A DNA stretch of 64,000 nt, from IMG/VR virus record IMGVR_UViG_3300046314_000711, one strand, 5' to 3'. This DNA is from a virus. Under the pieces are notes generated by a model. The model was not told where the DNA came from, did not search any database, and saw nothing but the letters and a program-made list of their open reading frames with translations. Shown one piece after another: positions 11,813 through 60,350 of the stretch. Position 1 is the first letter of the stretch; the number at the start of each line of letters is the position of its first letter. The position numbers and the translations under genes were made by a program.

Positions 11813-12159
11813 ATACAGCGAACTAATCTCATTAGGTAATGACAGTAAACCCCAAATCTTCTCGCCCTCACGAAGTTGCAAAACTAGTTGAAGAAGTATC
11901 CCTCCTGACGGACGACGAAGCTTTCTCGTTGCACGGTATTGAGTATTACACCGACGGTACTCTATATGATGATATTGAAGGTATTGAATACGAGTCGCTC
12001 GCAGCTTGGGCTGAGGTTCAGATCTCGATGGCATACGACGCAAAATTTCAAAAGCGTCAAGCTCATCACGCTTACGAAGATTAAATCTGTTGTATACACA
12101 ACAGCATCTACTAGACGATTCCTAATCTCTTTTAAATATCGTGTTGCAATACACGCACT

Positions 12160-12867
12160 ATGTCAATCCAACTAACTCCCCCATCCATTGCAACTGTTAC
12201 AGCGGTTGTTAAGTTTTGCAAACAGTTTTCTGTAGATGTTATAAAACTTACATCTACATCAGCTGCTGCCATTGATGATGTACCGTCTCTGTTCATCATG
12301 TTCGATGGTGTGTCGTATGCTGGCCCTGATTTGCTGATTAATAGGATCCGTGATTTATCTCAACGCCTTACACTTGATGGAGCGACGGTGACTGTTGTAA
12401 CTGGCGGTGCTGAGGACAAACCGAAATCCCTTCAAATTAAATCTGGTAAATCTACATTCGATTTCCGTCTTGCAAACGACCGGTCGAATGATCGGATTCC
12501 AGCAAAGTTCACTGGTTCATTTGCTCAAGAGCTTGAGCTAACTCGAGATGACTTAACTGCAGCAATTAATGCAGCTAGTTCAATTGGTGCTAAACTAATT
12601 ACATTCTCGGGTGACAAACATCTATCACTCTCAGCACTAAGTGAGAGTGAGACGTATACTGCAGTGCTTAGTGACGTTAAAACGAACTCCAAATTCCAAT
12701 ATAACTATACAACAGAATATTTGGCTGCTGTTGATAAAGTGCTACCAAAAACCATCAATACAGTCCTGTTTGATATTACAGCTAAAGGCCACATGCGGGT
12801 CCAATTGCCAACAGAGTTGAAGCAGGTTGCTGCTTCGGTATTTTTACTTGACGTGAAGAATCGCTAA
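12160..12867 (+). CDS. Putative DNA polymerase sliding clamp (gp45-like)
   Basis: 235 aa with a two-domain clamp-like pattern, next to RNase H; weak similarity by eye. Confidence 0.5.
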   Translation: MSIQLTPPSIATVTAVVKFCKQFSVDVIKLTSTSAAAIDDVPSLFIMFDGVSYAGPDLLINRIRDLSQRLTLDGATVTVVTGGAEDKPKSLQIKSGKSTFDFRLANDRSNDRIPAKFTGSFAQELELTRDDLTAAINAASSIGAKLITFSGDKHLSLSALSESETYTAVLSDVKTNSKFQYNYTTEYLAAVDKVLPKTINTVLFDITAKGHMRVQLPTELKQVAASVFLLDVKNR

Positions 12868-28021: not shown

Positions 28022-28498
28022 ATGTCATTTATTGCCACAGATTATATCAACCATACTGCAGTGCAGCAATTTACTGTCGTTAGCTCTGCGGCTGCAGAAG
28101 CACGTCCCCACTTATCATTTATGGCATGGTTGAAAGAGTACCGCACATTTTCAATTGGACTACCTCGACAAGTTGGAAAAACAACAGCACTGCTGGCGGT
28201 GTCAAATGAGTCTACTGCTATCATCTTCCCGACACCCTTGATGTTGGCTTATGTTAAACGTAGCCGCCTCTCTGTATCAGTTGGTCTCTACGATCCTGGT
28301 AGTTTTGTAGAGTATGCATCGTCGTATCACACGTCGAGTAATTCACCCAAACTAACTCAGATCTTTATGGATGAATTTGATTACATACCTACTCACCAAG
28401 CGGAACAGGTAATGAATGCTATAGAGATGCTACAGCATCGTGGCGGATTGGCGGACGATGTGTTCATTCTGAAGGTTGGCACTCCACCTTTTTGCTAA
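28022..28498 (+). CDS. Hypothetical protein with P-loop-like motifs
   Basis: PRQVGKTT and IFMDEF. Confidence 0.6.
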   Translation: MSFIATDYINHTAVQQFTVVSSAAAEARPHLSFMAWLKEYRTFSIGLPRQVGKTTALLAVSNESTAIIFPTPLMLAYVKRSRLSVSVGLYDPGSFVEYASSYHTSSNSPKLTQIFMDEFDYIPTHQAEQVMNAIEMLQHRGGLADDVFILKVGTPPFC

Positions 28499-28526
28499 AT
28501 ACTTAATATTCGTACAACTGTTTTAT

Positions 28527-29861
28527 ATGATGAGATTTATTGACTATTTAATTGAAGCGTCTTCCGGCGTGGATATGTGGGACAAGTACTACAAGGGTCG
28601 TCGGGTAATGACGACTATCAAACCGAAGGGGGCACAGTTATATGACGCTAATACCAATAAAGCAATCCCAGGAAAAAAACTGAGCGGTGGACACGAAGTG
28701 CTAGTTATTGGTGAGTATCCATTGCTACCAACACCGTCTCCAGCAGATATGGCACCTGGTTCGCGGTATGATTTGCGTGTTGGAGCTACTGATCCAGCAA
28801 ATGCTGCGTCAAAAGCATACCAACAGCGCAGCACTCCAGGTAATGACCCAAGTTTCGTTGACGTTGAATACAGTACTCGCACTAAAATTGCAGTGTACGA
28901 TGATGGTCACCAAAGCGTGTATCTTGTAAGCGTTAGTGATATTGCTAAGCCACTTCAAAAGAAGTTGTTTGTGTCACTAAAGCCTCAGAAAGTTTTAGCA
29001 GGCCGAGGTAAAGTTGAAAACGGATTCGCTGTGTTCCCTACATTGACTGCGTATAAGACAGAGTTGATCGCTGGAATTGAACAGTGTTCTGATCTGTCTA
29101 AGGAAGTTAAAGCATATTTAACGACATTGGTGATCGATGGAAGGAATGCAAGTGCTGTTCAACCAACGTATGACCAAACAGGAATTTCGAATAGCGTGCC
29201 ATCATACAATGCGCTAAACAATGATTTCTTGGAGATGATTGGCCCATTTGTAGTTGGAAAGAGTGGAAAGGTAGAAATTCCATTACGCGACAATGAGGCT
29301 ATGATTGATTTTAAAGTTGGTGGGGTAGGTTTTTCTTCAAAGCGTGCAGCCACAGTAGCAAATACACTAAAGTGTGGTGATGTGATTAAAGCACTTGGAG
29401 GACAAAAACTCAATCAGATGGAATTTTCATATCAACTCATGTCAACTCTTGCAACTGCTACTGTAAAGCAAGCACCAGCCGAACTGACAAACTTATTTAA
29501 TAGTAGTAAGTTCGCTTCGGAAATTGCTCAATTTGCTAGCGAACGAGTGTTCAAAAACAAGCGATCCACATGGCTTCCAGCAAAATCTGACTGGTCAATT
29601 GAAGATAACTACAACATGCAGATGACTACTATTGAGAAGTTCGTTAACCAGTGTGTCGCTCAAGGTTCTATAAATTTTGACAAATACGTCAATGAAGCAT
29701 TAATGGATGTGGGCGTAGTAAAAATGCAAATTAATCCACGCACTGGTGCATTGGATAAAATCGCGGTAACCCAACCTGGTTCAATGACTGCTTCTAAAGT
29801 TGGAATCCGGCACAAGGGTCGTGGATTCAAAGGCGGTGAACGTATGGGGTTTGTTCTGTAG
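28527..29861 (+). CDS. Hypothetical late protein
   Basis: TAAATA upstream; MRFIDYLIEA N-terminus. Confidence 0.7.
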   Translation: MMRFIDYLIEASSGVDMWDKYYKGRRVMTTIKPKGAQLYDANTNKAIPGKKLSGGHEVLVIGEYPLLPTPSPADMAPGSRYDLRVGATDPANAASKAYQQRSTPGNDPSFVDVEYSTRTKIAVYDDGHQSVYLVSVSDIAKPLQKKLFVSLKPQKVLAGRGKVENGFAVFPTLTAYKTELIAGIEQCSDLSKEVKAYLTTLVIDGRNASAVQPTYDQTGISNSVPSYNALNNDFLEMIGPFVVGKSGKVEIPLRDNEAMIDFKVGGVGFSSKRAATVANTLKCGDVIKALGGQKLNQMEFSYQLMSTLATATVKQAPAELTNLFNSSKFASEIAQFASERVFKNKRSTWLPAKSDWSIEDNYNMQMTTIEKFVNQCVAQGSINFDKYVNEALMDVGVVKMQINPRTGALDKIAVTQPGSMTASKVGIRHKGRGFKGGERMGFVL

Positions 29862-30060: not shown

Positions 30061-30830
30061 TTGACCTAAACTCAAACTGGCGATATAATGCTCCCTGTGT
30101 CTGGGAAATATCGCTGGTAAATAAAAGACTTGTAAATATTTTCAAATATCTGTTGACTTTAATAGAAAACGGTATATAATAGACCCTAATGCAGTGATCG
30201 AGCTGCTAAACAGAGTTCTTTAAAAAGTTGCTTGTTAGCGTCGTAATCTGGGATACCATGCTCGCCTGGTAAGAGTGTGAGGTAGTGGTCGCCAGCCACA
30301 ATAGATGAGGTTCGACTCCTCCACGACGCTAATAAGCAACTTTTTAAAAGATTCTGTTGACCTTAAAAGATTTTAGGGGATAATAGACGTACAGATAGTG
30401 ATCGCACTACTAATAATAGAGTTCTTTAAAAAGTTAGTTTGTTGTGCTGAAAGGTCCACCCACTGTCTTGTGGGGAGAAGGTAATAAGAAAGTTATCAGA
30501 TCCGTTTGATAGCAGAAATAACTTTAACAAACGAAACTTTTTAAAAGATTCTGTTGACCCTAGCCAAAATTGGGGTATAATGGAGACTAAGCAGTGATCG
30601 AGCTGCTTGATAGAGTTCTTTAAAAAGTTAGTGAAACCGCTGTTCATAGTGACGCCAGCTGAGATGCTGGGTAGCGCCAAAAAAGAACGAACAGTGGGAT
30701 GACTTGGATCATACCAAGCGTATCACAAAACTTTTTAAAAGATTCTGTTGACACATACTGAAAAGTGTGTGATAATAGACCCTAAGGCAGTTAAGACTGA
30801 TCACAGTAAACTGCAAAGTTCATTAAAAAT
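30061..30830 (+). repeat. Tandem array (about 200-nt period) of promoter / hairpin / boxA / cargo-RNA units
   Basis: TTGAC at 30061, 30153, 30357, 30554, 30748 with (T/G)ATAAT 16-17 nt later; GTTCTTTAAAAA at 30215, 30421, 30615; AACTTTTTAAAAGATTCTGTTGAC three times. Confidence 0.85.
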
Positions 30831-31174
30831 CTAAAGTTACGAAACAGTAGGATTAGTAGTGTCCATCTGATAATGAGTGGCAAATGGTTCGAAGTGCACC
30901 ACCCGCGCAGTAATTGCCAGGGGAAGTGAATACGGGAAGCCATACGGGAAGTGTAAGTCAGTCCAGATACTTGTAAATGCAGGAGGTCTAAAGACCTGAG
31001 CGACCGCAGCAATGTGGGAGAGATACTGGGACCGTTTGAAGCCTTTAGTGTAATAACACATTCGTAACTAATAGATTTTGTTCTTTAATAATTTACCGAG
31101 TGATATTCCTCTACATCGACTTCACAGTCCAATGTCGGGAGACAGCTGGTGGTTTAACCGCCCGGTTGGAGGAG

Positions 31175-31408
31175 TCATATTCAAATATCGAGTAAGCGAG
31201 GAGTGCAACCCAACTGAAGACGGCCACTGCATAGCCGAGCCGGACGCGGTATTTGAATATGATTATCTATGCGACGATAGTGACTAGGGCGCTTCGGGGT
31301 CTTCGACAATAGCATAGAATCATATTCAAATATCGAGTAAGCGAGGAGTGCAACCCAACTGAAGACGGCCACTGCATAGCCGAGCCGGACGCGGTATTTG
31401 AATATGAT
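31175..31408 (+). repeat. 89-nt direct repeat (31175-31263 = 31320-31408); the spacer unit recurs near 32060-32141
   Basis: Identical sequence blocks read directly. Confidence 0.9.
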
Positions 31409-32260
31409 AAAGGTGAATGGGTTAGGTATGTCACTGCCATAAGAACGCGGCATGCTGAGTTGGTTCAATTCCAACAACTTTTGTTCAATATGAATCCATG
31501 TGACAATAGCGCGCAACGATAGCATGGAATCATATCAAAGGATAATCGCAGGTAATGGCAAGTTGGTAGGCCATCCAGTTAATTCTGGCGCTGTAGTCGG
31601 AGGTTCGAATCCTTCTTATTCTTTGATATGATCGATGAGTGTTCGAGTAGCCGTGATGTTACTCACAGGGCAAGTAATCATCGTATGACATCTCGGAAAG
31701 ACGGGCTTCATATTTAAGTACTCCTTATAGGATCGTGCATTGGTAGTTCAAGCAGGGGAAGTTTGTAGTACTTAAATATGGTAAGTCGGTTGTTTGTGGG
31801 TCATAGAGAATTGCAGTAAGTTGGTTTAGCGACCTTCTGAAGATTCTCAACCGGGGCTGCTACTCCAAAGGTAGATACTGGGACTCGGAATCTCAGATAC
31901 AAACAACAATTCATAGCAAAGGATGTTGCAACATTCTAGCGAGGTCGCAGGCAGTAATACAGCCCCTTCCGTTCGATTCGGAGTTATGGATGACTTGGCA
32001 TATTCAAATATCGTAGGTGATGATAGTACGCTGGTTACGGTGAACTTCCCTGATCTGAACGGTATTTGAATATGATTATCTATGCGACGATAGTGACTAG
32101 GGCGCTTCGGGGTCTTCGACAATAGCATAGAATCATATTCATCCACAAGTCTCTTGCAACGGGGATTACAACAGGGGAATTAACCCTAAACGTGTTGCAG
32201 CGTTGACCTCTGGTAAGGAGGTATAGCTTGAATTAACAGGGTGGATGAATATGATACTTT

Positions 32261-32343
32261 GGAGAAGGAAAGCTGATGGCTTCAGCACCGAGTCTGTAAA
32301 ACTCGTCCTTCGGGGAGAGGGTCGGAACCTCACTTCTCCACCA
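32261..32343 (+). tRNA. tRNA-Tyr(GUA), atypical
   Basis: GGAGAAG/CTTCTCC, CGAGT-CTGTAAA-ACTCG, T-loop GTCGGAA, ACCA. Confidence 0.75.
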
Positions 32344-32544
32344 AGTTATGACGCAACGTGAACAGCAAAGTTCTTAATGTCATGTGCAATGGCGATAGTA
32401 GAGACTATCCAACGGGTGGTGAGTACGCTCCACATCATGTATTACTAGAAATAGTTTTCACATGTAGTAAAAGTTATGTTATAATTACTACATGTGAAAT
32501 TGGTCTAATTAACCAAAATTACAATCGAGAGTAATTAACTCGAT

Positions 32545-32674
32545 GACCCTTGCATAGTTTATTCGGCAAAACGTAAGAAATGTTGGTTCGATTCCAACCT
32601 ATGAACTCTGTTCGTAGTCGTCTAATGGCTAAGACGCAGGAGAGGGTGGTTCGAAGCCACCTGCAAATAGGGTC
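32545..32674 (+). ncRNA. Nested double-tRNA-like RNA
   Basis: Outer D- and T-arms surround an inner T-arm, closed acceptor-like hairpin and D-arm. Confidence 0.7.
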
Positions 32675-32784
32675 GCAAATTTGTCAGTAAAGAGAGTAAT
32701 TCTGAGTTCTGCAGGACTTGCATTAGGTAGTGATACCCGCGCCGCGATGCTGGCGGATAGAATTACTCTCTTTAGTGATTGATT

Positions 32785-32879
32785 ACAAATTAAAGTGTAT
32801 TTTATAGGTTCGATTCCTAAAGGGCGACGGTCGATAATTTCAAAGTTACTCTAAGTGGTTTAAGTACACTTTAATTTGT
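32785..32879 (+). ncRNA. Y-RNA-like (permuted tRNA) element
   Basis: 16-bp terminal stem enclosing T-arm TAGG-TTCGATT-CCTA and then D-loop-like TAAGTGGTTTAAG. Confidence 0.55.
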
Positions 32880-33188
32880 TAGTCAGTAGGTAGGCTTAGG
32901 AGCAGCCACCCTTTAATAAGTGAGACGAAGGCACGTTGAAACATTGTAATCTGGTGTAGGGCAGCAATCCAGATGAAAGCACAATAGGATTTTTGGTAAT
33001 GTTAGATAACAAACTCAAAAGGTTTGCTGACCCAAAAATCACAGTACGGTAACTTCGCTAGTTACTAAAGCAATGGGATAGCTTCCCTGAGTGCGAGTTT
33101 CGCGTGAGCCACTTGGTTAAGTACAGAGGCACCCCAGAAATGGTAAGGCTGACGTTCTCTTTGGCGTAATAGCAAGCTAACTAACAAA
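32875..33188 (+). ncRNA. RNA containing a 23S rRNA H43/H44 (L11-binding) mimic
   Basis: GGTAGGCTTAGGAGCAGCCACCCTTTAA (32889-32916) and GCGTAATAGC (33164-33173) inside a closing stem. Confidence 0.75.
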
Positions 33189-33858
33189 AATATGATAAAT
33201 AGTCTATTCTAAATATGGGTACTCAAAATATCCGTTCTTAGAGGGTGCAAATCCCTAGATACCTCGGGTTACCGACTGTTGAAGCGGAGTGCTAGGTAAA
33301 AACAGGGTAGACTTATCATATTCAAGTTTTATTTTGTATGGCTCGCAAAATTCGAGACTCCCAGCAGATAGAACTTGAATATGATAATGTTCGAAAGTTA
33401 TCATAACGGAAGATGAGCAAACTCGAGTAAAACTCATCAAGGCACACTTTGGTGAAGTTTAAACGACTTCCAATGCTGAACCACTATACCACTGACTGGA
33501 GGATATCCGCGCCGGAGTCGTCCTTCGGTTGTATAGTTGAATACATTGAAAGAATTGGTCAAGCCCAGTCAAGCCCAGTCAAGTTGTAGTTTATTGAAGA
33601 ACACCAATGTATTCAACTATGCTATAAATTGCGGGGATGAAAATGGAAATGTCGTTCGCCATTATAGAAAACACCTCTGCCTAAGCTGTAAATAGATGGT
33701 CTGGACCCCATCGGCATGCTTTGAGTGTCCACTGATAAATAAGGTTTTGCTGGTAAGAATACGTCGTAAAAGTGATTTTACAGAATTTAGAAATTTATTC
33801 TGGTTGTCAATAAAAATCTCTATCCTCCAAAGCAGGGCCAGCAAATTTATAATTTAAC

Positions 33859-33991
33859 GCGGTTGATGGCTAACTAAATTATTTCAACTCCGGATGAGAA
33901 GTAACGAGGTATCTTAGCTGTTAATAGTCTAACTTGTGATTGAATGTACAATAAATCACGAGTCGGGGTGCAAATCCTCTCAGCCGTACCA
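33859..33991 (+). ncRNA. Enlarged tRNA-like RNA ending ACCA
   Basis: GCGGTTG/CAGCCGT acceptor, GGGG-TGCAAAT-CCTC T-arm, expanded D and anticodon regions. Confidence 0.5.
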
Positions 33992-34213
33992 ATATTCCCC
34001 CTATAGCCTGACGCAAGGGAGCCAAGAGCATGATGCAGTCGCGCTGCACGCCTCAGAGCATGAGAATGATGTTCCTTTCCGGTGCAAGCAGTCCGGTCCA
34101 ATTTTGCGATGCAGACGCGCAGCCTCTCCATTTCACGGAACAAAAGCTCGCAGGGTAGTTAGATAGTTCTGCACCGTTGGGAAAAGACCCCTTAGGCCCA
34201 ACACCAGATAAAT

Positions 34214-34316
34214 GCGCTTGTAATTCAGTGGTTAGAAGGTCACCCAGCTATGATGGCACGATACGCCGTAAAAGCACTGGCTCTGTTGGACGTGGGTTCG
34301 AATCCCACCAAGCGCG
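34214..34316 (+). tRNA. tRNA-like RNA with extended anticodon arm (identity unclear)
   Basis: GCGCTTG/CAAGCGC, canonical D and T arms, about 50-nt anticodon region. Confidence 0.65.
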
Positions 34317-34596
34317 CTATATTGAAACACACTGGCGATTCTCGTATGAGGGTCGTTATTTGGTGCACAAGTGTAACAGTGTGTTTCAATATGGTATAGT
34401 GTAATGAGAATGCACGGGAGCGCCACATAAATCTCTTTGACTAGAGTGGTGGAACAAGTTTCAAGTACGGTAAAACCCCGTAAGCCATATTTAAACGTAC
34501 TGATGAGCTGATGCAATTTCAGCGAAACTGTTGGGGAGCCATTACAATGATTTGCTCTTGTAAAAATATCCAACAGTATACGTAGAGGATAAGCGA

Positions 34597-35106
34597 ATGA
34601 AGTTGTCTGACATTTTATGCAGTGTCCACATCGTGGAGGCGCTAACGACCCGAGTTCCTATCACATGGGAACAATCTACCCCAGCTACTATTACTGGCAC
34701 TGGTGTCATTGATGGTGTAATAATAACACTAACGATATCGTCCCTAGTGTACAGTGGGTACAATGGTTGTAATCTAGCATTTGCTACTGATAAAGATGGT
34801 GAACCTGTTGAGGTGTTCCGAAACGAATTTGGGCAAAGTGCATCTAAAATTATTGGTGCTGTTGTTAATGGATTCAATGAGAAATTGACTGATTTTAACT
34901 TCGACTTTTTGTGTCTTGCAGCCAAAGACAACGTTGATAAGCGAGCTTCGCTTTATCTAATGATAGCTGAACGATTTGCACGTAGTCGGCAGATGCATGC
35001 TAGAACTGTTGCATACGGAGAAAACAAAGTTGTTATTATGATTAACCACGACCTTCCTCTCGATTTGATTAAAAAACTAGAACAACAAGGTAGTAGTGTT
35101 GATTAA
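34597..35106 (+). CDS. Hypothetical protein, paralog family A
   Basis: GAGGA RBS; KIIGAVVN...FDF...AKD..R..LY...ERFAR shared with 45156 and 49064. Confidence 0.75.
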   Translation: MKLSDILCSVHIVEALTTRVPITWEQSTPATITGTGVIDGVIITLTISSLVYSGYNGCNLAFATDKDGEPVEVFRNEFGQSASKIIGAVVNGFNEKLTDFNFDFLCLAAKDNVDKRASLYLMIAERFARSRQMHARTVAYGENKVVIMINHDLPLDLIKKLEQQGSSVD

Positions 35107-35166
35107 ATATGGTGTGCCACTGGCAGTGATGAGTGAATTAAAAAATAATCTCAAGTAACGCATTTA

Positions 35167-35241
35167 GCATTCGAGGTGTTAATAGATACATTCTTCGCTT
35201 CCACCGAAGAGTTCCCGGCGCGATACCGGGCGAATGCTCCA
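35167..35241 (+). tRNA. tRNA-Gly(UCC)
   Basis: GCATTCG/CGAATGC, CTTCG-CTTCCAC-CGAAG, U73-CCA, T-loop CGCGATA. Confidence 0.82.
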
Positions 35242-35674
35242 GAATTAGTCGGAGTAGCTAACCGAAAAGTAAACAGTAGATGCGCCATGGTTGCTCGGCG
35301 ATCTTTGCGGTGATCCACCGCGTCAGCCCGCAAGGTTGAGAAAAACTGCAGTAAAAGTCTGAAAGTAGAGCAATCAGAATTTGAGCACAAAGTACAAGTG
35401 TAATAGAGTAAATATTATCATCAGTACTTTGTGCAGTGATGGTAAATATTACGTCTGGTGATGAAGACGATGGCTTCCCACCTACGGATGTAATGCCATT
35501 CGAGTGTGATACCTTTAACCCTCTGGATCCGTTTGCAGAAGCGAAGCGTGGGACAGTGGTGCAGGAGTTAGATATGGACGAAGAGTCGTTTTGGCGACTC
35601 TTCCAGTAAAAATTGGGCAAGTGGTGCAGTTACGACAGTGTGTAACTGGTTCTACCACCAATACCCGATACTTT

Positions 35675-35757
35675 GGGCCGCTGACATATGCAAATTGGCA
35701 CAGCTACTCGGCTTAGAACCGAGGTTTTTCCCGGTTCGAGTCCGGGGCGGCCCACCA
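35675..35757 (+). tRNA. tRNA-Leu(UAG), short variable arm
   Basis: GGGCCGC/GCGGCCC, CTCGG-CTTAGAA-CCGAG, ACCA. Confidence 0.85.
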
Positions 35758-35794
35758 TTAATCTTAAAATAAGACAGGTAATCACATCTTAGTT

Positions 35795-36583
35795 ATGCAG
35801 AATAGAATATCAACAGCTACAAAGCAACAAATTATCGATATGTTCACTCAAGGGATGTCTAGAATGGATATTTCGAACCAACTGGGTTTGGAGTGGAAAC
35901 AGGTCGATTATTGGTGTCGCAAACAAGCTCGAGTGTCAGAATTAGCAACCGAAGTTGACTTTTCACCTAAATTGTTGCAAGCAGTTGGTGAGTACTACGC
36001 ATATTTACTTGGAGCATATCTTGGTGATGGGTATATCAACAAAGAGCGCTATACCTGGAAAATTAGATTTTCATGTGACGTGAGGTACCCAGGCGTTATA
36101 AACGCACTTACGCGAGCACTAGTGCAATTGGGGTTTGTAAACGCAGCATGCTGTAAAACTGGTAGCGATAATTGTGTTGAAGTGTACGCATACGGAAAAC
36201 ATATCGCAGCAATGTTCCCTCAGGTTGGTCCAGGACGAAAACACACAAGACGGATCAACCTCGACCATTGGCAACAACAGATTGTTACAAAGTATCCCCA
36301 ATATTTTGTAAGGGGGTTGTATCATACTGATGGGTGTAGATATATTCACACGGACAAAAAAGGCGATAAAGTATACCAATCGGTTAAATACGCATTCGTC
36401 AACAGATCGAAGGACATTATTGATCTATTTTGTGGAAGCTGTGATCAATTAGGAATCGGATACAGAGTCACAACTAAAAAGTTCATTGCTCTGACCACTA
36501 ATGAAGTTGCAATAGGTTGGGTGATTCAACTCGGCCGCAAAAACGAAGTACTAAAGCTGGAGAAGTTTTTAGGGCCAAAGTAA
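35795..36583 (+). CDS. Free-standing HTH + LAGLIDADG homing endonuclease
   Basis: N-terminal HTH, YLLGAYLGDG and VRGLYHTDG motifs. Confidence 0.85.
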   Translation: MQNRISTATKQQIIDMFTQGMSRMDISNQLGLEWKQVDYWCRKQARVSELATEVDFSPKLLQAVGEYYAYLLGAYLGDGYINKERYTWKIRFSCDVRYPGVINALTRALVQLGFVNAACCKTGSDNCVEVYAYGKHIAAMFPQVGPGRKHTRRINLDHWQQQIVTKYPQYFVRGLYHTDGCRYIHTDKKGDKVYQSVKYAFVNRSKDIIDLFCGSCDQLGIGYRVTTKKFIALTTNEVAIGWVIQLGRKNEVLKLEKFLGPK

Positions 36584-36655
36584 TAAATAACATTAAACCA
36601 AAACAATGGCGCATTTCTAGTTGGGCGTCTATACAAATTTAACTAGCACAAATTT

Positions 36656-36735
36656 GGGGCACGGGGCTGCTTGGGGTGGCCACTACACTTGCACTGTAGA
36701 TATTCAGCTCGGTTCAAATCCGAGGTGCTCCACCA
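36656..36735 (+). tRNA. tRNA-Ala(UGC)
   Basis: GGGGCAC/GTGCTCC (G3:U70), CTACA-CTTGCAC-TGTAG, ACCA. Confidence 0.9.
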
Positions 36736-37452
36736 AATTTGAAGTAGGACACAGCACTGTATGGCTACAATGTCAACATACAGGCTTCAAATCACTATTC
36801 GTTAGTCGAATCACCCAATGGAGGCACATGGTGTAAAACTTACCCTCCAATTTTTTAAAGATAGTCATATCATATTAGCGGCACGCTGGAAGGACAGCGT
36901 AGATGCAATACAGAAACAAGCATCACAATAGTGGGGGCGTTCACACACCAGTTAATACAGCCTCGATGTCCAAGAGATTAATTACCTCGCTTCGGACTGC
37001 AAAACCACCAGATTGTGCTGAGAATGCATTCAGAGGTAAGTAGGCGAGCACTGTGGACGCACATCTCGACGGAGGGCACTGCTAGGGTGTGCTGACTGGG
37101 AATCAAGCCCCGGACGCTAATATGATATGATTTATGACCCTCCCATTAGGGATGGTAAGCGAGCTCTCAGTGACTCTGCTAGGTGAAGTAGTTGGTGACC
37201 AAACAGACCGCCTTGGTCGGTGGTAATGTGGAATCCTAAACGCTTAAAAACTCCTGACAATAGGCCTAACCGGCCATACGATAAGGAACACTAGTAACGC
37301 TCTCGTTTCCCATAGCAGTTCACTCTGCAAAGGGTCGCCAAATAATCCATTCTCGGTTTAAGGTGAAGCACGCCCGAGCACCAACTTGCAAAAGTTGTAT
37401 AAAACCCAATTACAAGTGACACGACTGGTGATGGAAGCCAGTCACAAATTTT

Positions 37453-37647
37453 CCCGAGGTAGTTCAGTGGATGGTTGGTAATCAGTGGTAAGGAACGCCC
37501 ACTACGGTTATCTTCCCGCAGATTGTGGAGTAGCATTGGTTAGTAATCAGCACGCGGCTGACGAATCTGATGTGGCAAGTCTCTCTGTGTAGAACGCTCG
37601 TTCTCTAAACGAGAGGTCGGTGGTTCGAATCCACCCCTTTGGGACCA
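37453..37647 (+). tRNA. tRNA with about 120-nt D-loop insert; anticodon UCU (Arg) or shifted CUA
   Basis: CCCGAGG-TA-GTTC...GAAC, CTCGT-TCTCTAA-ACGAG, canonical T-arm, ACCA. Confidence 0.65.
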
Positions 37648-38079
37648 TATAAAACACATTCCGGGCTGTCTCCAATGGCGTACGGATCTCCGCAAGGCTG
37701 TACGGGACTGTAGCAATGCAGTCGAGGGGTGTGAATGTGTTTGTAATAACGGGCAACGTGAAGGCCCTGCTGATAGGTTTAAATGGCCTTGATCGAAGGT
37801 ACGCCGGACTACCACAACTCTTGACTGTTATCAGACTAAACAGTCACCATATAAAAATACTATTGACGGGTAGACCCTGCATACACCGCAGGGCATCTAT
37901 TCGGTTCCCTGGCAGGGGCGAACCTTGTGTTGTGCCAGCAGCGCAAGCAGTATTGATAGTGTTTTTATATGGTGATAGTGGGTCGAGAGTTTGTAACTTG
38001 ATTAAGTTCGGGGCGATCTTGATTTATAGTCCGAGCGTAAAACTGTGGGATCTTTAGTCCCGCAGATGTAAGCGAGCAA

Positions 38080-38460
38080 TTATCCTTGTTCAGCTATATA
38101 TTTAGCTATTGTTTCGGTCGAGGCATCCCCAGTAGAACAAACAAAATAACCAGATGACTAAAATATACAATTCTTCCAAAAATGTTTTCTCAGTTCGGAG
38201 CTGTGTAAGAACCAAACTTTTGCAGTAGTCGTTTGTTTCAATAATCTGACAATTTGTGAAACTGACACATTTGGCGAGTAATCAACCAGTAAATGGATAT
38301 GATCTTTGTCCACTTCCATTACTTGTATTTTGAAATCGGCTGTTTGATTTGTTAGTATTGTATCTTTGATGGTCTGTATTAGTTGTGGCTTAGACAGAAG
38401 TTTCTTTCTATACTTGACGCAGAACACAATATGGCTTTTGAGTGTAGCTTTTCTCCCCAT
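38080..38460 (-). pseudogene. tnpA: Y1 HUH transposase with in-frame TAG at the conserved Trp (F*SSGYF)
   Basis: HIVFCVKYR, DHIHLL; after the TAG at 38158-38160 the frame continues SSGYFVCSTG...KYIAEQG. Confidence 0.85.
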
Positions 38461-38529
38461 TTTGATGGTATATTTTCAATTTTGTATAAATATATTTATG
38501 TCAATCAAATCAACTGCATAAATAATAGT

Positions 38530-39804
38530 ATGAAACAGCTGCTCGCTTACAAATATAGGATTTACCCAACAGAAGACCAACAAATCCTTCTGAGTAAAAC
38601 CTTTGGCTGTAAACGGGTAATATTCAACCATTACCTAAATGTGCAACAAACAAATTTCAAGAACAAAGAAAAGCACCTGAGCAACTATGACATCAATAGA
38701 GACATTACTAAACTGAAGGATGAGAAGGACTGGTTACGGGAAGTAGATTCTATTGCATTGCAGATGGCAGCAGAAGACCTATCGTTGGCATATGACAATT
38801 TCTTCAAATCAACTACTGGTAAGAGAAAGGGTCCGAAGATAGCGGCTCCTAAGTTCAAAACCAAGAATTCTCGGCAGTCGTATAGAACTCGTGGGGTTCG
38901 TATCAATGAAAATGGTTCTTTACAAATACCAAAACTAAAAGCAGTAGAAGCAGTCATCCATAGAGAAATTCCAGGTGATTCGACAATCAAATCAACAACC
39001 ATATCAAAGAATACGGATGGAAGATATTACGCATCGATTTTAGTTGAAACAGAAGTAGCATTAAAGCCAACGACTGGTAGAGAAGTTGGTTGCGATGTGG
39101 GTCTAAAAGATTTACTCATCACTTCAGATGGGATAAAATTCAAAAGACCGAATGATTTGCTAAACATTGTGAAAACAAAACAATTGTTGAAGGCAAAACA
39201 AAAGCAGTTTGCAAGAACTGATAAAGGCAGTGAAAATCATGAATCAATTCGACTCCAAGTAGCAAGATTGTACTCAAAGATCACAAGACAACGAAATGAA
39301 TATTATCATCTAGTATCAAACTACTTAGTCGATAATTATGATTCCATCTACGTTGAAGATTTGTCGAGTAAGAATATGCTACAAAACAGGAAGTTGAGTA
39401 GAGCAATTCACGAGGCAGCATGGGCCACACTGACTGGAATGATTTCATACAAATCAAATCAGGCAGGTAGGACATATCATCGAATTAGTAGATGGTATCC
39501 GAGCAGTAAGACTTGTAGTTCATGCAATTACAAACTTGAAAAGCTCGATCTTGGAACCCGAGAATGGACTTGTCCTAACTGTGGAGTCTTTCACGATCGG
39601 GATCTAAATGCAGCAAAGAATATACTTCGTGTTGGTCAGATTGACTGCTACGAAGAGGTAATAGAGTCGCAAGCAACAGGCGATTTGGAATTAAAAATTC
39701 CATTGGCCCTACAGAAAATGACTAGTAAAATCGAGAGATCTGGCATATGCTTGTCAGTTGGTTATGGGAGTGGGCAAGCTGCACGATCTTTAGTCGTGCA
39801 GTAG
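38530..39804 (+). CDS. tnpB: RNA-guided endonuclease TnpB
   Basis: AYKYRIYPT, RuvC D/E/D (GCDVG, VEDL, DRD), zinc finger CSSC...CPNC. Confidence 0.93.
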   Translation: MKQLLAYKYRIYPTEDQQILLSKTFGCKRVIFNHYLNVQQTNFKNKEKHLSNYDINRDITKLKDEKDWLREVDSIALQMAAEDLSLAYDNFFKSTTGKRKGPKIAAPKFKTKNSRQSYRTRGVRINENGSLQIPKLKAVEAVIHREIPGDSTIKSTTISKNTDGRYYASILVETEVALKPTTGREVGCDVGLKDLLITSDGIKFKRPNDLLNIVKTKQLLKAKQKQFARTDKGSENHESIRLQVARLYSKITRQRNEYYHLVSNYLVDNYDSIYVEDLSSKNMLQNRKLSRAIHEAAWATLTGMISYKSNQAGRTYHRISRWYPSSKTCSSCNYKLEKLDLGTREWTCPNCGVFHDRDLNAAKNILRVGQIDCYEEVIESQATGDLELKIPLALQKMTSKIERSGICLSVGYGSGQAARSLVVQ

Positions 39805-40033
39805 TTGACAGTGGTTCGAACAAAAGCGGAAGCAGCCAGGCGAACTCATAGAGTTTGGATAGTGTTGGGACGGCAGAAATTCCCACTACCTATTGTCATC
39901 ATATAAAAATGTACTGTCCTACCCAAAGGGTGGCAGACAGTGGTTGGAAGGATCTGCTCGTTATCTATCTGATGGATGCACTCGGGTTGCACCGATGCCA
40001 AAGGACGATGATTGTAGTACATTTTTATATGAT

Positions 40034-40154
40034 TAGTTGGTGATGTAATTGGTAAACATAAGCGGTTAGAGGAATTTATCTTCGAGAAGGACGCCAAAAC
40101 CTTTCCTCGTAAACCGCTGGCAAAGTGTGGGTTCGAGCCCCATCCAACTTTCCA
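40034..40154 (+). tRNA. tRNA with 41-nt anticodon-loop insert (GUA if removed)
   Basis: AGCGG-TT-[40068-40108]-GTA-AA-CCGCT; D and T arms intact; TCCA. Confidence 0.65.
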
Positions 40155-40318
40155 TATAAAAGTTAGTTCCCATTTGGAGGTAGAACACTGCGTAATCCCA
40201 GTATAGCGCATTGGTCGAGCTAACTTTTATATTGTCCATATTTGAGTGTATTGCTATCGCACAAACAGTATTCCGGAAAACGGCCCACAAAGCTTAGCTG
40301 GGTAATACACTCAAATAT

Positions 40319-40432
40319 GGGGAGGTAGCTCAGTTGGCAGAGCAACGTAATCGAATGCAGAGACAGGCCGGCTTTATGGCTCTGTTAGTAGATATGCGCA
40401 TGTCGGTGGATCGTGGCCACCCCTCCCCACCA
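40319..40432 (+). tRNA. tRNA-like RNA with extended anticodon arm
   Basis: GGGGAGG/CCTCCCC, canonical D-arm, about 45-nt structured anticodon loop, ACCA. Confidence 0.65.
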
Positions 40433-43090: not shown

Positions 43091-43525
43091 ATGAGCCTTA
43101 TTACAGAAATCAAGTCTGCGCAGTTGACTGCTCGTAAGGACCGAAATGGTCCAATGGCATCACTGCTAACTACCCTCATCGGTGAAGCAGAAATGGTCGG
43201 CAAGAATGCTGGCCGTGAAGTGCTTGATGCAGAAGTGGTTGCAACAATCAAAAAGTTTATCAAGAACATTGACGAAACAATCAAAGCACTTGGTGTGGAA
43301 GATGCTCGTGCACAGGCTGCACAAGACGAACGCGTTGTTCTGGAACACTTTCTACCGCGTCAAATGGACGAACAGCAACTGACCGAAGCAGTGACTGCTA
43401 TCAAGGCTGAACTGAATGCTGGACAAAAAGATATGGGCAAAGTGATGGGTCTATTGAAGACACGACACGAAGGCCAGTATGATGGTAAGATGGCTTCTAC
43501 TGTGGTCAAAGCAGTACTCGCCTAA
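43091..43525 (+). CDS. GatB/YqeY domain protein
   Basis: LEHFLPRQM, KDMGKVMG, DGKMAS.VVK. Confidence 0.9.
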   Translation: MSLITEIKSAQLTARKDRNGPMASLLTTLIGEAEMVGKNAGREVLDAEVVATIKKFIKNIDETIKALGVEDARAQAAQDERVVLEHFLPRQMDEQQLTEAVTAIKAELNAGQKDMGKVMGLLKTRHEGQYDGKMASTVVKAVLA

Positions 43526-46251: not shown

Positions 46252-47685
46252 ATGACAACAGCAACATTTGCACACGCAGTTTTAACTCAACCAACTACAA
46301 CAACCAATGGCATGAAAGCATTCGCTGGCACTGGTAACGCTTGTGTTCAACTTTTCTATGCGATCGGTGCGATGCGTGGTAAAGACGTTATTCCATTGTT
46401 TAAAGCAGCCTATGCAGAAAACATGGAAATTGCACTGCGAATCGCACAATGGAGCCGTGACATTCGTGGTGGAGCAGGAGAGCGTCAAATTTTCAAAGAT
46501 ATTCTTGCTCACTTGGAAATTACGAATCAAGATCAGCAAGTACGAGCACTAATCGATAAGATTCCAGAAATTGGGCGTGCTGATGATATGTTGATCAATT
46601 GGAAGACAGTGGGGGTTCGTAACTATGCATTTACTGTATATGGGGAACAACTTCGCAACGGTAATGGACTATTCTACAAATTCCTACCTCGTGAAAAAAG
46701 CGCAAAGAAGCGTCTCGCAGCAGAACTCCGTTCATTCTTCGGATTGACTCCTCGTCAGTACCGTAAGCTGGCTTCTGCTAATACTACTGTTACCGAAACA
46801 CAGATGTGTGCGAAGGATTGGGATAACATCAACTTTAGCCACGTGCCTTCTGTTGCTGCCTCACGTTACAAAAAAGCATTTAAAAGAAATGCTCCCGTTG
46901 TGTTTACTGAATATGTTGAAAAACTGACCAAAGGCGATCCGTCCGTAAAGGTAAACTCAAGCGCAATCTTCCCGTACACAGTGATCAAAGGCTGGCATTC
47001 TTCTCGCATTGATCCAACGATTCGTGCTCATGTGAATGCACAGTGGGCAGCACTACCAAACTACGTAGGTAATGCGAGTATCTTGCCATTAGTTGATGTA
47101 TCTGGTTCGATGAATTGCCCAGCTGGTGGAGACACTTCAGTGACTTGCCACGATGTTGCACTATCACTCGGTCTGTACCTGTCTGAAAAGAATACTGGTA
47201 AGTTTAAAGATATGTTCCTGACGTTCTCCGAAGATCCTGAACTACTGCACCTAACTGGTGACGTGATGGATCGTTTGGAAACAATGGATCGTAGCAAATG
47301 GGACATGAGCACTGACATTGTCAAGGCACTTGCTAAGATTTTGGAAGTCGCTGTTGCTGGTAACGTACCTCAAGGTGAAATGCCAGAAATCTTGTGTGTG
47401 ATGTCCGACATGCAATTCAATGAGGCAGCAGAGGCAAACGATAGTGCGATGGAAAGCGTGCGAACTCAATATGCTGCAGCCAACTACACATGCCCAAAGT
47501 TGGTGTGGTGGAATCTAAATCACAAAGGTAACGTACCTGTGACAGCCAATGAGCAGGGCGCAGCACTTGTATCGGGGTTTAGCCCAGCGATTGTAGCAAG
47601 CATTCTGAGTGCGGATCCAGATGATTTCACACCATATGCATTAATGATCAAATCCGTCTGTGTACCGCGATATGATGTGAAATAA
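46252..47685 (+). CDS. DUF2828-family protein (helical repeat + vWA; Ro60/TROVE-like architecture)
   Basis: TTNG, RDIRGGAGER, VPSVA, MIDAS DVSGSM, FLTFSEDP, SDMQF, WWNL, VSGFS. Confidence 0.85.
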   Translation: MTTATFAHAVLTQPTTTTNGMKAFAGTGNACVQLFYAIGAMRGKDVIPLFKAAYAENMEIALRIAQWSRDIRGGAGERQIFKDILAHLEITNQDQQVRALIDKIPEIGRADDMLINWKTVGVRNYAFTVYGEQLRNGNGLFYKFLPREKSAKKRLAAELRSFFGLTPRQYRKLASANTTVTETQMCAKDWDNINFSHVPSVAASRYKKAFKRNAPVVFTEYVEKLTKGDPSVKVNSSAIFPYTVIKGWHSSRIDPTIRAHVNAQWAALPNYVGNASILPLVDVSGSMNCPAGGDTSVTCHDVALSLGLYLSEKNTGKFKDMFLTFSEDPELLHLTGDVMDRLETMDRSKWDMSTDIVKALAKILEVAVAGNVPQGEMPEILCVMSDMQFNEAAEANDSAMESVRTQYAAANYTCPKLVWWNLNHKGNVPVTANEQGAALVSGFSPAIVASILSADPDDFTPYALMIKSVCVPRYDVK

Positions 47686-47713: not shown

Positions 47714-47821
47714 GGGACTCTAGCATAATTGGTAGTGCTGGGAACTCTTACGGAGCATCTGCACAAGCGGGTGTTCAAAATAATTCCTAAGGCCTCGGTT
47801 CGAACCCGGGGGGTCCCACCA
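47714..47821 (+). tRNA. tRNA (Ile/Met, CAU if spliced) with 32-nt hairpin insert in the anticodon
   Basis: GGGAA-CT-C-[47748-47779]-AT-AA-TTCCT; intact D, T and acceptor; ACCA. Confidence 0.75.
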
Positions 47822-50177: not shown

Positions 50178-50786
50178 ATGAACAACCCTTACTTCCCACC
50201 ATCCATCTACGGTCACGAGTACGATTTTCTTAAGCCTAAAGTCAAATCTGCAAAAGGGACAAAGCCTCCAAAAGACAAAAGACCAGTGAACTGGCGCGCT
50301 GGTAAAAAATGTACCTGTGCACTAGCTTGTATTACACCATCGGGGCGGGTGTTAATCTGCCACCCAACTAACGGTCCATTCAAATTCGGCTGGGGGTTTC
50401 CAAAGGGTATTAAGGATGATACCGATGCTGATGAAATCTCCGCCGCCCGCCGAGAACTGCGTGAAGAAACTGGAATAGACCTACCCGATGATATGCTGTA
50501 CATCAATTGTGGAACATTTGATTATACTAAGGAAAAGGTGTATCGTCTGTTTGCGGTGAAACTTGATTATGAAATTGACATCACTACACTGCACTGCGAA
50601 TCAATGTTTACAGATAAGGACGGTACTCAAAAACCCGAGATTGACAAATATGATCTTGTTAAGCTCGATCGTTGTTACAAAGATATGACGACAAAACAAT
50701 CCCTTGTGGTTAAGTCGTGTCTAGCAACACTCCGTGCTACATTGCGGGGTACTGCGAAAGACACTCGTGTCGATTGGGTACTATAA
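50178..50786 (+). CDS. NUDIX hydrolase
   Basis: WGFPKG...AARRELREETG. Confidence 0.88.
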   Translation: MNNPYFPPSIYGHEYDFLKPKVKSAKGTKPPKDKRPVNWRAGKKCTCALACITPSGRVLICHPTNGPFKFGWGFPKGIKDDTDADEISAARRELREETGIDLPDDMLYINCGTFDYTKEKVYRLFAVKLDYEIDITTLHCESMFTDKDGTQKPEIDKYDLVKLDRCYKDMTTKQSLVVKSCLATLRATLRGTAKDTRVDWVL

Positions 50787-53384: not shown

Positions 53385-53443
53385 AAGTACTCACCTGCGC
53401 ACGAATAGCGCACCACCCTCAATTATCAATGGAGACATTCTAT

Positions 53444-53869
53444 ATGCAAGACGTTAATCAACAACCAGTTAGTATCACCACCGCCACGTGGACCGCAACT
53501 CAGGTTCCGCATGTGTGGCAAACGGTGGATGGTAAATTTGTCTGGACAACCGAAACTGGGAGCTCTGGTGATGATATCCTATATCCAGATATTCCTGATG
53601 CAGTTCGTGCAATGAATGTCTACAACTTCTTTGTGTTGGAAGGTCTCGGAGAGCGTTTGCGCACAGAAGTATTCAATGTAACATTCAAAAAGTCTGACGG
53701 CACACTGCGAACAATGCGTTGCACTTCTAATCCATCAGCATTTCCAGTGCGCGAATCAACAGAACCCACAAAGGCTTCCAATCCTGATGTCCAGGTTGTG
53801 TTTGACCTCGATAAAAAAGCTATCCGGTCATTTCGACGGGATAGCATTGTGAGTTTTACAGTGGCTTAA
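53444..53869 (+). CDS. SH3/WYL_2-like (DUF2693-like) protein
   Basis: VTFKKSDGTLRTMRCT...VFDLDKKAIRSFR. Confidence 0.7.
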   Translation: MQDVNQQPVSITTATWTATQVPHVWQTVDGKFVWTTETGSSGDDILYPDIPDAVRAMNVYNFFVLEGLGERLRTEVFNVTFKKSDGTLRTMRCTSNPSAFPVRESTEPTKASNPDVQVVFDLDKKAIRSFRRDSIVSFTVA

Positions 53870-59741: not shown

Positions 59742-60350
59742 ATGTTAAATGTACAGAAATTTATTGCTACTAATGGTCTCGACTCTTTGTCGGAACAGTT
59801 TAGCATTGATATTAAGAAATACGAAAATGGGTATGTAAAGCTTAATTACAGCCAAATTGATTCTCCAAAGTATCACCCAATTTGTGATGAGTGTAGAGGA
59901 TTAGTACTGCAGATATTACCTGACAACTCGTCTGTTGTTATATCTCGTTCGTTCAATAGATTTTATAATTTTGGCGAGGGGGATACCAAATTGTTTGATT
60001 TTTCAGATTGTTCAGTATATGAAAAAGCCGATGGATCACTAGTAATGGTGTCTTGGTCACCTGTCGATAACAAATGGATCATCGGTACTCGTGGAATGCT
60101 CTATGCAGAAGGGAGTTTCGGATTTTCATTAACAGCAGCTGGTGGGACATTTTATGATTGGATCTTAAAAGCAATGCAACTAAATGAGTCTCAATTCCAG
60201 TCATGTATGAGTGGGTTTTCTCAAGACTACACATACGTGATGGAGTTTTGTGGAATGGCAAACAGAATTGTTACACCATATTCTGATAATTTTATGGTAT
60301 TATTGGCTGTGGTGCACAATCAGACTGGAGCGGAACTTTTGTTAAATTAA
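59742..60350 (+). CDS. T4 Rnl1-like RNA ligase, N-terminal part
   Basis: ECRGL, RFYN.GE, motif I EKADGS, TRG, YVMEF...NRIV. Confidence 0.85.
   Translation: MLNVQKFIATNGLDSLSEQFSIDIKKYENGYVKLNYSQIDSPKYHPICDECRGLVLQILPDNSSVVISRSFNRFYNFGEGDTKLFDFSDCSVYEKADGSLVMVSWSPVDNKWIIGTRGMLYAEGSFGFSLTAAGGTFYDWILKAMQLNESQFQSCMSGFSQDYTYVMEFCGMANRIVTPYSDNFMVLLAVVHNQTGAELLLN

Follow-up and report, generated by a model that had tools for sequence, protein, structure and literature searches.

A family of stem-clamped, putative small RNAs linked to phage tRNA arrays and expanded into a ~10-kb island

A gene-poor island of clamped RNA cassettes

The DNA analysed here, a 64-kb stretch referred to throughout as the window, corresponds to bases 24163-88162, reverse-complemented, of a single viral record of 109,810 bp (IMGVR_UViG_3300046314_000711). 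It harbours an RNA island of an uncultivated large phage: a gene-poor segment of ~10 kb whose sequence features predict 14 or more small RNAs. Each of these candidate RNAs takes the form of a cassette, in which a variable payload is enclosed by a long inverted repeat with CATAT...ATATG ends, termed the handle. Since CheckV estimates the completeness of the 109.8-kb record at only ~32%, it is probably a piece of a much larger phage genome. No genome similar to the window was present among 50,697 deposited phage genomes, and a cultured-phage collection yielded neither close relatives by DNA or protein nor any match in a distant-mode cassette query. The genes on the + strand of the window include those for an intein-bearing helicase, an exonuclease, a tail-fibre-like protein, a LAGLIDADG endonuclease and TnpB. 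Between ~30 and 41.5 kb, long open reading frames (ORFs) are nearly absent, tRNA T-arm motifs are numerous, and tRNA-like genes with 20-75-nt insertions are called only by an intron-tolerant ARAGORN run.

Five sites on the + strand match the sigma-70-type promoter consensus at 11/12 positions (30061, 30153, 30554, 30748 and 32457), and no strong terminator-like site was found within 31-41 kb of the window. The four ~200-bp units spanning 30134-30778 each combine a near-consensus promoter with the word AGAGTTCTTTAAAAAGTT; this word and the promoter region of the following unit make up long inverted repeats. These units are kept in three relatives, i.e., the metagenomic contigs L001 (6530-7200), L003 (11700-11990) and L004 (11765-12075).

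A sequence-only reading of this DNA had listed 14 inverted repeats with stems of 14-23 bp, two of them with near-variant ends. All 14 were recovered where it had placed them, 11 with exact CATAT...ATATG ends; the near variants number three (33532-33621, 34318-34393 and 40152-40234), and the ungapped stems measure 13-25 bp. The features of the island are as follows:

30061-30776, + strand: promoter cluster, near-consensus sigma-70-type sites in four ~200-bp repeat units (family D1), just upstream of the cassette array
31175-31262, + strand: cassette 1, 19-bp UCAUAU...AUAUGA stem around a 50-nt payload; exact CATAT...ATATG at 31176-31261
31262-31322, + strand: spacer hairpin between cassettes 1 and 2, closed by UCUAUGC/GCAUAGA, its ...AAUCA end abutting the next handle
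31319-31408, + strand: cassette 2, a duplicate of cassette 1 at 99%; exact ends at 31321-31406
31529-31632, + strand: cassette 3, payload 3' end forming the tRNA T-arm GGAGG-UUCGAAU-CCUUC; exact ends at 31531-31630
31709-31780, + strand: cassette 4, exact CATAT...ATATG ends at 31709-31780
31781-31998, + strand: tRNA-like closed domain between cassettes, with a terminal helix and a T-arm at 31967, its 3' end entering the next handle
31999-32076, + strand: cassette 5, same handle as cassette 1 with a different payload; exact ends at 31999-32074
32132-32255, + strand: cassette 6, 15-bp stem and a multi-hairpin payload of 94 nt; exact ends at 32134-32253
32457-32485, + strand: additional sigma-70-type promoter, 11/12 matches
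32684-32778, + strand: second divergent clamp, with different ends, missed by the sequence-only reading
32785-32879, + strand: divergent clamp lacking CAUAU ends, its payload opening with a T-arm-like hairpin; likewise missed
33313-33387, + strand: cassette 7, 22-bp stem and 31-nt payload; exact ends at 33317-33383
33531-33622, + strand: cassette 8, variant ends UAUAG...CUAUG at 33532-33621
34317-34394, + strand: cassette 9, variant CUAUAU...AUAUGG (TATAT after C, 34318-34393), directly 3' of the tRNA-like gene at 34214-34317
36865-37130, + strand: cassette 10, 230-nt payload; exact ends at 36866-37129
37645-37745: degenerate clamp
37844-37975, + strand: cassette 11, 25-bp stem including four G.U pairs; exact ends at 37848-37971
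38383-39811, + strand: TnpB (IS605-family) element with Pfam matches, within an inter-cassette segment and outside the handle system
39898-40033, + strand: cassette 12, exact ends at 39900-40031
40034-40154, + strand: tRNA-like gene with insertion, whose ...UCCA 3' end is the start of the next handle
40152-40234, + strand: cassette 13, 3' end variant AUAUUG
40236-40320, + strand: cassette 14, exact ends at 40237-40319, the last G being base +1 of the tRNA-like gene at 40319-40432

A scan of the 109.8-kb record for CATAT...ATATG pairs with at least 13 base pairs and a span of 45-330 nt returned 12 pairs—11 hairpins plus one cross-pair between two duplicate copies—and none outside window positions 31176-40319. 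Dinucleotide shuffles gave a mean of 0.17 pairs and a maximum of 1 for the whole record (n = 60) and 0.0 pairs for the island (n = 200); set against the 12 observed, these figures exclude a chance origin of the stems. Covariance-model matches in the window were confined to 31.1-40.3 kb. Cassette 1 scored 43.6 bits on the + strand and 30.4 on the - strand, and the divergent clamp at 32785-32879, which lies outside the training set, reached 31.2 bits (E = 2e-4).

The duplications described for 31.2-32.1 kb are borne out by the alignments, with 99% identity between 31172-31263 and 31317-31408 and 100% between 31247-31328 and 32060-32141. The spacer hairpin at 31262-31322 accordingly has an identical copy at 32075-32135, together with a variant at 31480-31530. 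Such opposite-phase spacer hairpins exist as described; their GAC(A/G)ATAG words, reported as paired motifs, sit in internal loops and are not paired with each other in the minimum-free-energy fold.

Structure, strand and covariation of the handle

The consensus 5' arm of the handle, (A)CCAUAUUGAAGURYA, pairs with a mirror ending AUAUGG(U); in a broader form, the 5' arm reads (A)(C/U)CAUAU(U/A)NAARURYA and its mirror ends AUAUG(G/A)U. In a logo of 31 instances CAUAU is invariant, positions 7 and 8 are nearly always A, position 10 is mostly U, and R, Y and A follow, with the 3' arm mirroring the conservation of the 5' arm. The stems are near-perfect, bulge-free duplexes of uniform length (median 20 bp, interquartile range 18-22).

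A G.U pair on the + strand equals an A.C mismatch on the opposite strand or in a DNA cruciform, and the balance between the two reports on the strand. The 15 window stems contain 245 Watson-Crick pairs, 17 G.U, 1 A.C and 6 other mismatches. Across the cassettes of 18 contigs, where the strand was set independently by the tRNA genes, G.U pairs outnumbered A.C mismatches 94 to 19 (p = 4e-13), and the covariance model of the handle scored the tRNA strand above the opposite one at every locus. The G.U bias and these strand scores, together with the + strand promoters and the lack of internal terminators, indicate that the stem is an RNA structure selected in the + strand (tRNA-strand) transcript.

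The covariation analysis used an alignment of 64 cassettes from 18 contigs over a 19-pair stem. Here, 94.2% of cells were paired, compared with 80.6% in shuffles and 33-48% in slid registers; double-sided changes occurred at 16/19 stem pairs, giving 173 compensated cells where 44 were expected. The proposal that inner stems differ yet remain paired is upheld by these values. The picture of a shared handle around unrelated loops also stands: besides its G.U bias on the tRNA strand, the handle keeps its sequence across distant phages, and it encloses payloads that mostly lack mutual similarity. A self-cleaving ribozyme was considered and rejected, the conserved part being only a regular helix and the payloads having no common core.

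Junctions with tRNAs

The cassettes are fitted onto tRNA ends with single-nucleotide precision. Twenty of 70 cassettes start exactly 2 nt inside the CCA of the upstream tRNA, and 15 of the 70 end exactly on the +1 base of the next tRNA; the abutting cassettes share the strand of the tRNA and show the direct contact expected of tRNA-linked small RNAs. This architecture is epitomized in the complete 214-kb phage G001, whose only three good cassettes all lie inside a 28-tRNA array: one of the hairpins spans 12086-12183, overlapping the end of tRNA-Arg (12087) and sharing its last position with base 1 of tRNA-Ser. The tRNA-Glu and tRNA-Val of G001 form the same exact junctions with cassettes.

The CCA is encoded in 266/285 of the tRNAs of these arrays. 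Ordinary tRNA-tRNA spacers are 1-10 nt long and AU-rich, mostly with UAU or AAU before the +1 base, and the 3' end of the handle therefore resembles a normal RNase P leader; CCA followed by UAUU, as opposed to these ordinary spacers, is peculiar to cassettes. In the window, the inter-cassette segments have their own terminal helices, whose N-(C/U)CA ends lie immediately 5' of the next handle, and tRNA-like segments carry T-arms at 31967, 34292, 37619 and 40127. Since these segments are self-closed, the transcript would form a series of closed domains 0-4 nt apart, with acceptor-type and handle closures alternating. The payload of cassette 3 ends in a T-arm, so its handle would constitute a 17-bp extended acceptor stem. 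In phages other than that of the window, the handle fits exactly between the CCA of one tRNA and the +1 base of its successor, which makes the tRNA-maturation machinery the first candidate.

Insertions of 22-74 nt also interrupt the tRNA or tRNA-like genes at 34214-34317, 37482-37643, 40034-40154, 40319-40432, 47714-47821 and 596-742, within or close to the anticodon arm, and are not long enough to be group I introns. One of these genes, 40319-40432, shares 92% identity with L001 12615-12737 and also occurs in L003.

Payload diversity and cassette turnover

The cassettes contain no ORFs, and their payloads are modular and exchangeable: a few are strongly conserved, most turn over fast and a minority mimic parts of tRNAs. 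Among the conserved ones, L001 8930-9037 and L003 13760-13867 share 96% identity over 84 nt, and one cassette upstream of tRNA-Ala is common to five contigs. Window 40237-40319 and L001 12191-12273 have a 43-nt core that is 93% identical, with inner stems that differ through compensatory changes, and cassette 10 has an orthologue in L003 whose stem is likewise kept by compensatory change and ends in CCUAU instead. Exchange is evident at the Lys-to-Asp junction, where contigs L016 and L017 have the same stem and different payloads—and the L017 payload recurs in L014 with a different stem. A T-arm hairpin was detected in 9/67 payloads against 0.5 expected, usually with the handle as a long acceptor stem; T-arm and D-arm occur together in one of the 67, and the only T-arm payload of the window is that at 31529-31632.

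Gain or loss of whole cassettes among relatives had been named beforehand as a check, and the result was positive. In L016, tRNA-Arg and the tRNA-Ala cassette are separated by one complete cassette that L017 and L013 lack. Moreover, a 2.39-kb block containing three cassettes, a tRNA-like gene and the TnpB element is present in the window and absent from L001; it is inserted between CCATAT at 37848 and CCATAT at 40237, with cassette 11 as the left breakpoint and the switch in homology falling within the first 5-6 nt of the handle.

Several further conserved RNA elements were found in the island. A 102-nt non-coding stretch (window 34103-34204, L001 7960-8061) is 95% identical, the neighbouring protein being 49% identical. 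Directly 3' of cassette 10, the RNA segment at 37130-37341 is strongly conserved in L003 (15930-16140), with ~60 nt near-identical and no handle boundary. A 'two-headed' tRNA mimic with the order D-arm, T-arm, hairpin, D-arm, T-arm (32545-32674) is 83% conserved in L003 (13924-14035), and its inner T-hairpin-D part is a sub-threshold match to Rfam YrlA (32 bits). Finally, three phages contain a predicted type I hammerhead ribozyme (window 34495-34585, L003 14545-14640 and L001 9497-9592) with the core CUGA(U/C)GA, GAAA and an A15.1-U16.1 pair, a cleavage site after GUA, and one compensatory change in each of stems I and II. It lies just upstream of the ribosome-binding site of the ORF at 34597-35106 and is unreported by the Rfam hammerhead models.

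Distribution among phages and bacteria

The 461-aa protein encoded just upstream of the island (28476-29861) has homologues with 43-49% identity on metagenomic contigs. L001, L003 and L004 share the gene order of the window around this gene, and the first two continue into an ORF-poor island with ~10 stems each, mostly ACCATAT...ATATGGT, next to a protein 45-49% identical to that of the window. A search of IMG/VR with one exact variant of both arms recovered 15 further viral contigs, several with 3-8 cassettes, against an estimated chance expectation of ~0.2. In these 15 and the two related contigs, the handles are nearly always within tRNA arrays. The handle sequence is conserved among phages whose core proteins are only ~25-50% identical, and it is better conserved than the phage proteins, since the window record and G001 have only ~15 proteins in common, at 24-37% identity.

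A different picture emerged from 596 Gb of prokaryotic genomes, which gave 19 handle matches where ~4 were expected by chance. Thirteen of the 19 have only 12-17 Watson-Crick pairs (once 25, once 34) and no tRNA nearby, and for five the stem scan reported nothing; the sole true cassette is on L035, a phage-like contig with 16 tRNAs. We therefore regard the element as phage-specific and reject the notion that the handle is a general bacterial tRNA-operon signal. No family in Rfam 15 matches the cassettes, and no description of an equivalent element was found in the literature. The data thus delineate a real family of tRNA-array-linked, stem-clamped putative small RNAs that is apparently undescribed and, in the phage studied here, expanded to a ~10-kb island.

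Candidate protein partners and neighbouring genes

No RNase III gene was found in the window record or in five other handle-bearing records, including the complete G001. The DUF2828/DUF7788 protein at window 46252-47685 (PHROG 850, 'RNA-binding protein') is predicted by AlphaFold (pLDDT 73) and Foldseek to adopt a Ro60/TROVE fold: its top 13 Foldseek matches are all Ro60, including that of Thermus phage phiLo, with E-values of 1e-6 to 8e-4. It gave no Pfam TROVE match (E up to 0.1) and no PDB chain by sequence or profile search, and its family has >6,600 relatives in metagenomes. The gene begins 5.9 kb past the last cassette and lies 5.9-15 kb from the cassettes overall. It is not required, because the complete phage G001 bears cassettes and has neither DUF2828 nor TROVE. 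In the other handle-bearing records, most of which are fragments, a Ro-like protein occurs in 1/10 and WYL_2 in 3/10, counts that carry little weight in either direction. The WYL_2 Sm-like beta-barrel protein of the window (53390-53869) is encoded just after an amber-suppressor tRNA, and homologues adjoin the tRNA arrays of G001 (9067-9273), L013 and L017.

Two further candidates were rejected. The 461-aa protein, considered as a handle enzyme, has no Pfam or PHROG family, no IMG/VR relative, a poor AlphaFold model (pLDDT 61) and no fold match. The handle is not a TnpB guide either, because the right end of the TnpB element, ...GTAGTTGAC (window ~39811)—the last sequence common to 19 relatives—lies 88 nt before the nearest handle, that of the cassette at 39900. 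Close relatives of this element (38383-39811; 73-86% identity) were found on 17 viral contigs, one of which (129 kb) has three copies. Other genes of the window include a helicase gene interrupted by an intein with a LAGLIDADG domain (2990-5134), a YqeY-like protein gene (43091-43525), a NUDIX hydrolase gene (50178-50786) and a fragment matching the N-terminal part of T4-type RNA ligase 1 (59742-60350).

Interpretation

We give about an even chance to the proposal that the cassettes are small RNAs co-transcribed with tRNAs and tRNA-like elements and excised by tRNA-end maturation, possibly together with RNase III. Transcription of the + strand would start from the strong promoters at 30.06-30.78 kb and run through cassettes, tRNAs and tRNA-like elements alike. 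The duplex is built onto tRNA ends, with the CCA (or UCA) of the upstream acceptor-type helix supplying its first pairs and its last G coinciding with, or directly preceding, base +1 of the tRNA or tRNA-like helix that follows. By tRNA punctuation, RNase P would then cut at the 3' boundary AUAU|G and tRNA 3'-end maturation at the 5' boundary CCA|UAU, and both cuts would leave a flush-ended hairpin RNA, protected by a long stem that may double as a common recognition handle. The two-turn stem is also a plausible RNase III substrate, and duplex cleavage may contribute. Repeated handles could act as recombination points at which units are gained, lost or swapped and, as payloads are interchangeable and mostly fast-changing, the array would be a platform from which a varying repertoire of small RNAs is expressed. 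The structure, strand, conservation, junction geometry and modular turnover of the cassettes are observed; the nucleases, the release of hairpins as stable products and any function of the payloads are what we infer.

Several points weigh against this proposal. It is from junction geometry alone that we infer the release of the hairpins, and only the 20 and 15 of 70 cassettes mentioned above adjoin an ARAGORN-called tRNA; in the window, the neighbours are mostly non-canonical tRNA-like elements or plain hairpins. A stable stem that takes in the CCA and reaches up to the +1 base would be expected to impede RNase P and 3' exonucleases, an effect that the weak AU-rich terminal pairs may offset. 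Finally, stem positions 7, 8 and 10 are conserved in sequence though pairing alone would permit change, which points to a sequence-specific partner and is unexplained by tRNA-end processing.

A partner of this kind is central to a second, tentative possibility: that the handle is a phage-specific docking duplex, read in its sequence, and a plug-and-play platform in tRNA arrays for fast-evolving anti-defence small RNAs. A conserved protein would recognize the handle, the payloads would include tRNA mimics, Y-like RNAs and further decoys that counter host defences aimed at the translation apparatus, and recombination between handles would renew the payload repertoire.

It is rather unlikely that the stems are mainly duplex-cleavage signals by which host RNase III separates neighbouring tRNAs or tRNA-like RNAs, with the payload hairpins as passengers or by-products. 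Clustering of stem length at two helical turns, the near-perfect, bulge-free pairing and the rRNA-operon-like tandem strong promoters at the array are all consistent with such a role. However, none of six handle-bearing records contains an RNase III gene, so a host enzyme would be needed across possibly diverse hosts, and most tRNA-tRNA spacers in the same arrays, being only 1-10 nt long, need no signal. Several payloads, unlike passengers, are better conserved than the phage proteins, and the element is essentially absent from bacterial genomes, the one true case in 596 Gb being on a phage-like contig.

The predicted Ro60 fold of the protein at 46252-47685, with Ro60 as every one of its top 13 matches, raises the possibility of an expanded Y-RNA-like library, in which the handle would dock this protein and the payloads would serve it as tethers or gates, in the manner of Ro60-Y RNA-PNPase complexes. 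An end-to-end alignment of L001 7280-7375 with Rfam YrlA (long stem, T-arm and D-arm) reaches a sub-threshold 27.1 bits, T-arms recur in 9/67 payloads, a Ro-like gene with the same gene order is present in the sample of the L001 phage, and phage Y RNAs adjoining Ro60 are known (PMC4201824, PMC12135203). We nevertheless find this doubtful: no window cassette reaches E = 5 against YrlA, and the handle is a continuous helix without the stem-bulge-stem site bound by Ro (PMC12135203). Moreover, the three cassettes of the complete G001 occur with no DUF2828 or TROVE protein, the Ro-like protein is found in 1/10 other records (mostly fragments), and its gene is 5.9-15 kb from the cassettes compared with typically <4 kb for Y RNAs (PMC4201824).

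Least probable of all, in our judgement, are DNA-level mobile or recombining units of the miniature inverted-repeat or integron attC type that spread between tRNA genes with RNA structure as an incidental feature; whole-cassette gain and loss with breakpoints exactly at the handle, the 99-100% duplications at 31.2-32.1 kb, payload swaps behind identical stems and the TnpB element and LAGLIDADG endonuclease gene in the island would fit, but the G.U excess over A.C on the transcribed strand would go unselected in a DNA hairpin or terminal inverted repeat, the right end of TnpB falls 88 nt short of the closest handle, the exact tRNA junctions show no target-site duplication, and the turnover calls for no dedicated mobility enzyme, being explained by homologous recombination between the repeated handles. 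Of the DNA-level boundaries entertained in the sequence-only reading, the part that survives is the behaviour of handles as recombination breakpoints; a purely DNA-based reading is disfavoured by the strand-specific G.U pairs.

Significance

Phage tRNA arrays are increasingly viewed as counter-measures to host attack on translation. Our analysis suggests that RNA genes of a second, so far unannotated class, sharing one conserved handle, also reside in these arrays. In one lineage, the handle has expanded to at least 14 copies near a predicted Ro60-fold protein, a hammerhead ribozyme, an RNA ligase fragment and many tRNA mimics. The handle could serve as a simple sequence tag for spotting such RNAs in metagenomes, and handle cassettes offer a concrete substrate for studying how phages process and use non-coding RNA.

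Comparison with known systems

The cassettes resemble integron attC sites and miniature inverted-repeat elements in their conserved ends, variable paired inner arms and cassette-wise gain and loss. Unlike these, their pairing appears to be selected as RNA on one strand (G.U 94, A.C 19), and they contain no ORFs. No integrase or transposase was linked to the handle, integrases not having been searched for, and the only transposon-type gene is TnpB, 88 nt away.

The likeness to bacterial and phage Y RNAs is closer in architecture. In YrlA (Rfam RF02553) and in Yrl1 and Yrl2 of phage phiLo, the 5' and 3' ends pair in a long stem around a variable module that is sometimes a tRNA mimic, and a predicted Ro60-fold protein is encoded in the same phage as the cassettes. 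The Ro60-binding site of Y RNAs is a stem-bulge-stem helix (PMC12135203), and Y RNAs typically lie within ~4 kb of Ro60 (PMC4201824). The handle, by contrast, is uninterrupted, 94% paired over 19 positions and without a bulged Ro-binding helix, and the Ro60-fold gene is 5.9 kb beyond the last cassette. Against the YrlA gathering score of 69 bits, no window cassette gave a match at E up to 5, the best relative (L001 7280-7375) scored 27.1 bits, and a non-cassette element, L003 13978-14035, scored 32.1 bits. Most payloads are not tRNA-like (T-arm in 9/67, both arms in one), and the cassettes occur without a Ro60 homologue in a complete phage and in up to 14 copies, compared with 1-4 for Y RNAs.

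RNase III processing stems flank 16S and 23S rRNA and occur in the early transcripts of phage T7. As in those systems, a long flanking stem of about two helical turns lies in a predicted polycistronic transcript with tandem strong promoters. Unlike those stems, the handle is conserved in sequence as well, is perfectly paired, abuts tRNA ends and is much shorter than the rRNA stems.

Finally, tRNA-linked small RNAs are represented by mitochondrial tRNA punctuation, the tRNA-miRNA units of murine gammaherpesvirus 68, plant tRNA-snoRNA dicistrons and the tRNA spacer RNAs of E. coli. Unlike these RNAs, each cassette has its own conserved ~20-bp closing duplex that incorporates the upstream CCA, and the cassettes come in many copies per array and are common to distant phages. 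In both cases, a non-tRNA RNA lies directly against tRNA ends in what would be one transcript, RNase P and 3'-end enzymes could define its ends, and the geometry of the cassettes is exact at both junctions.

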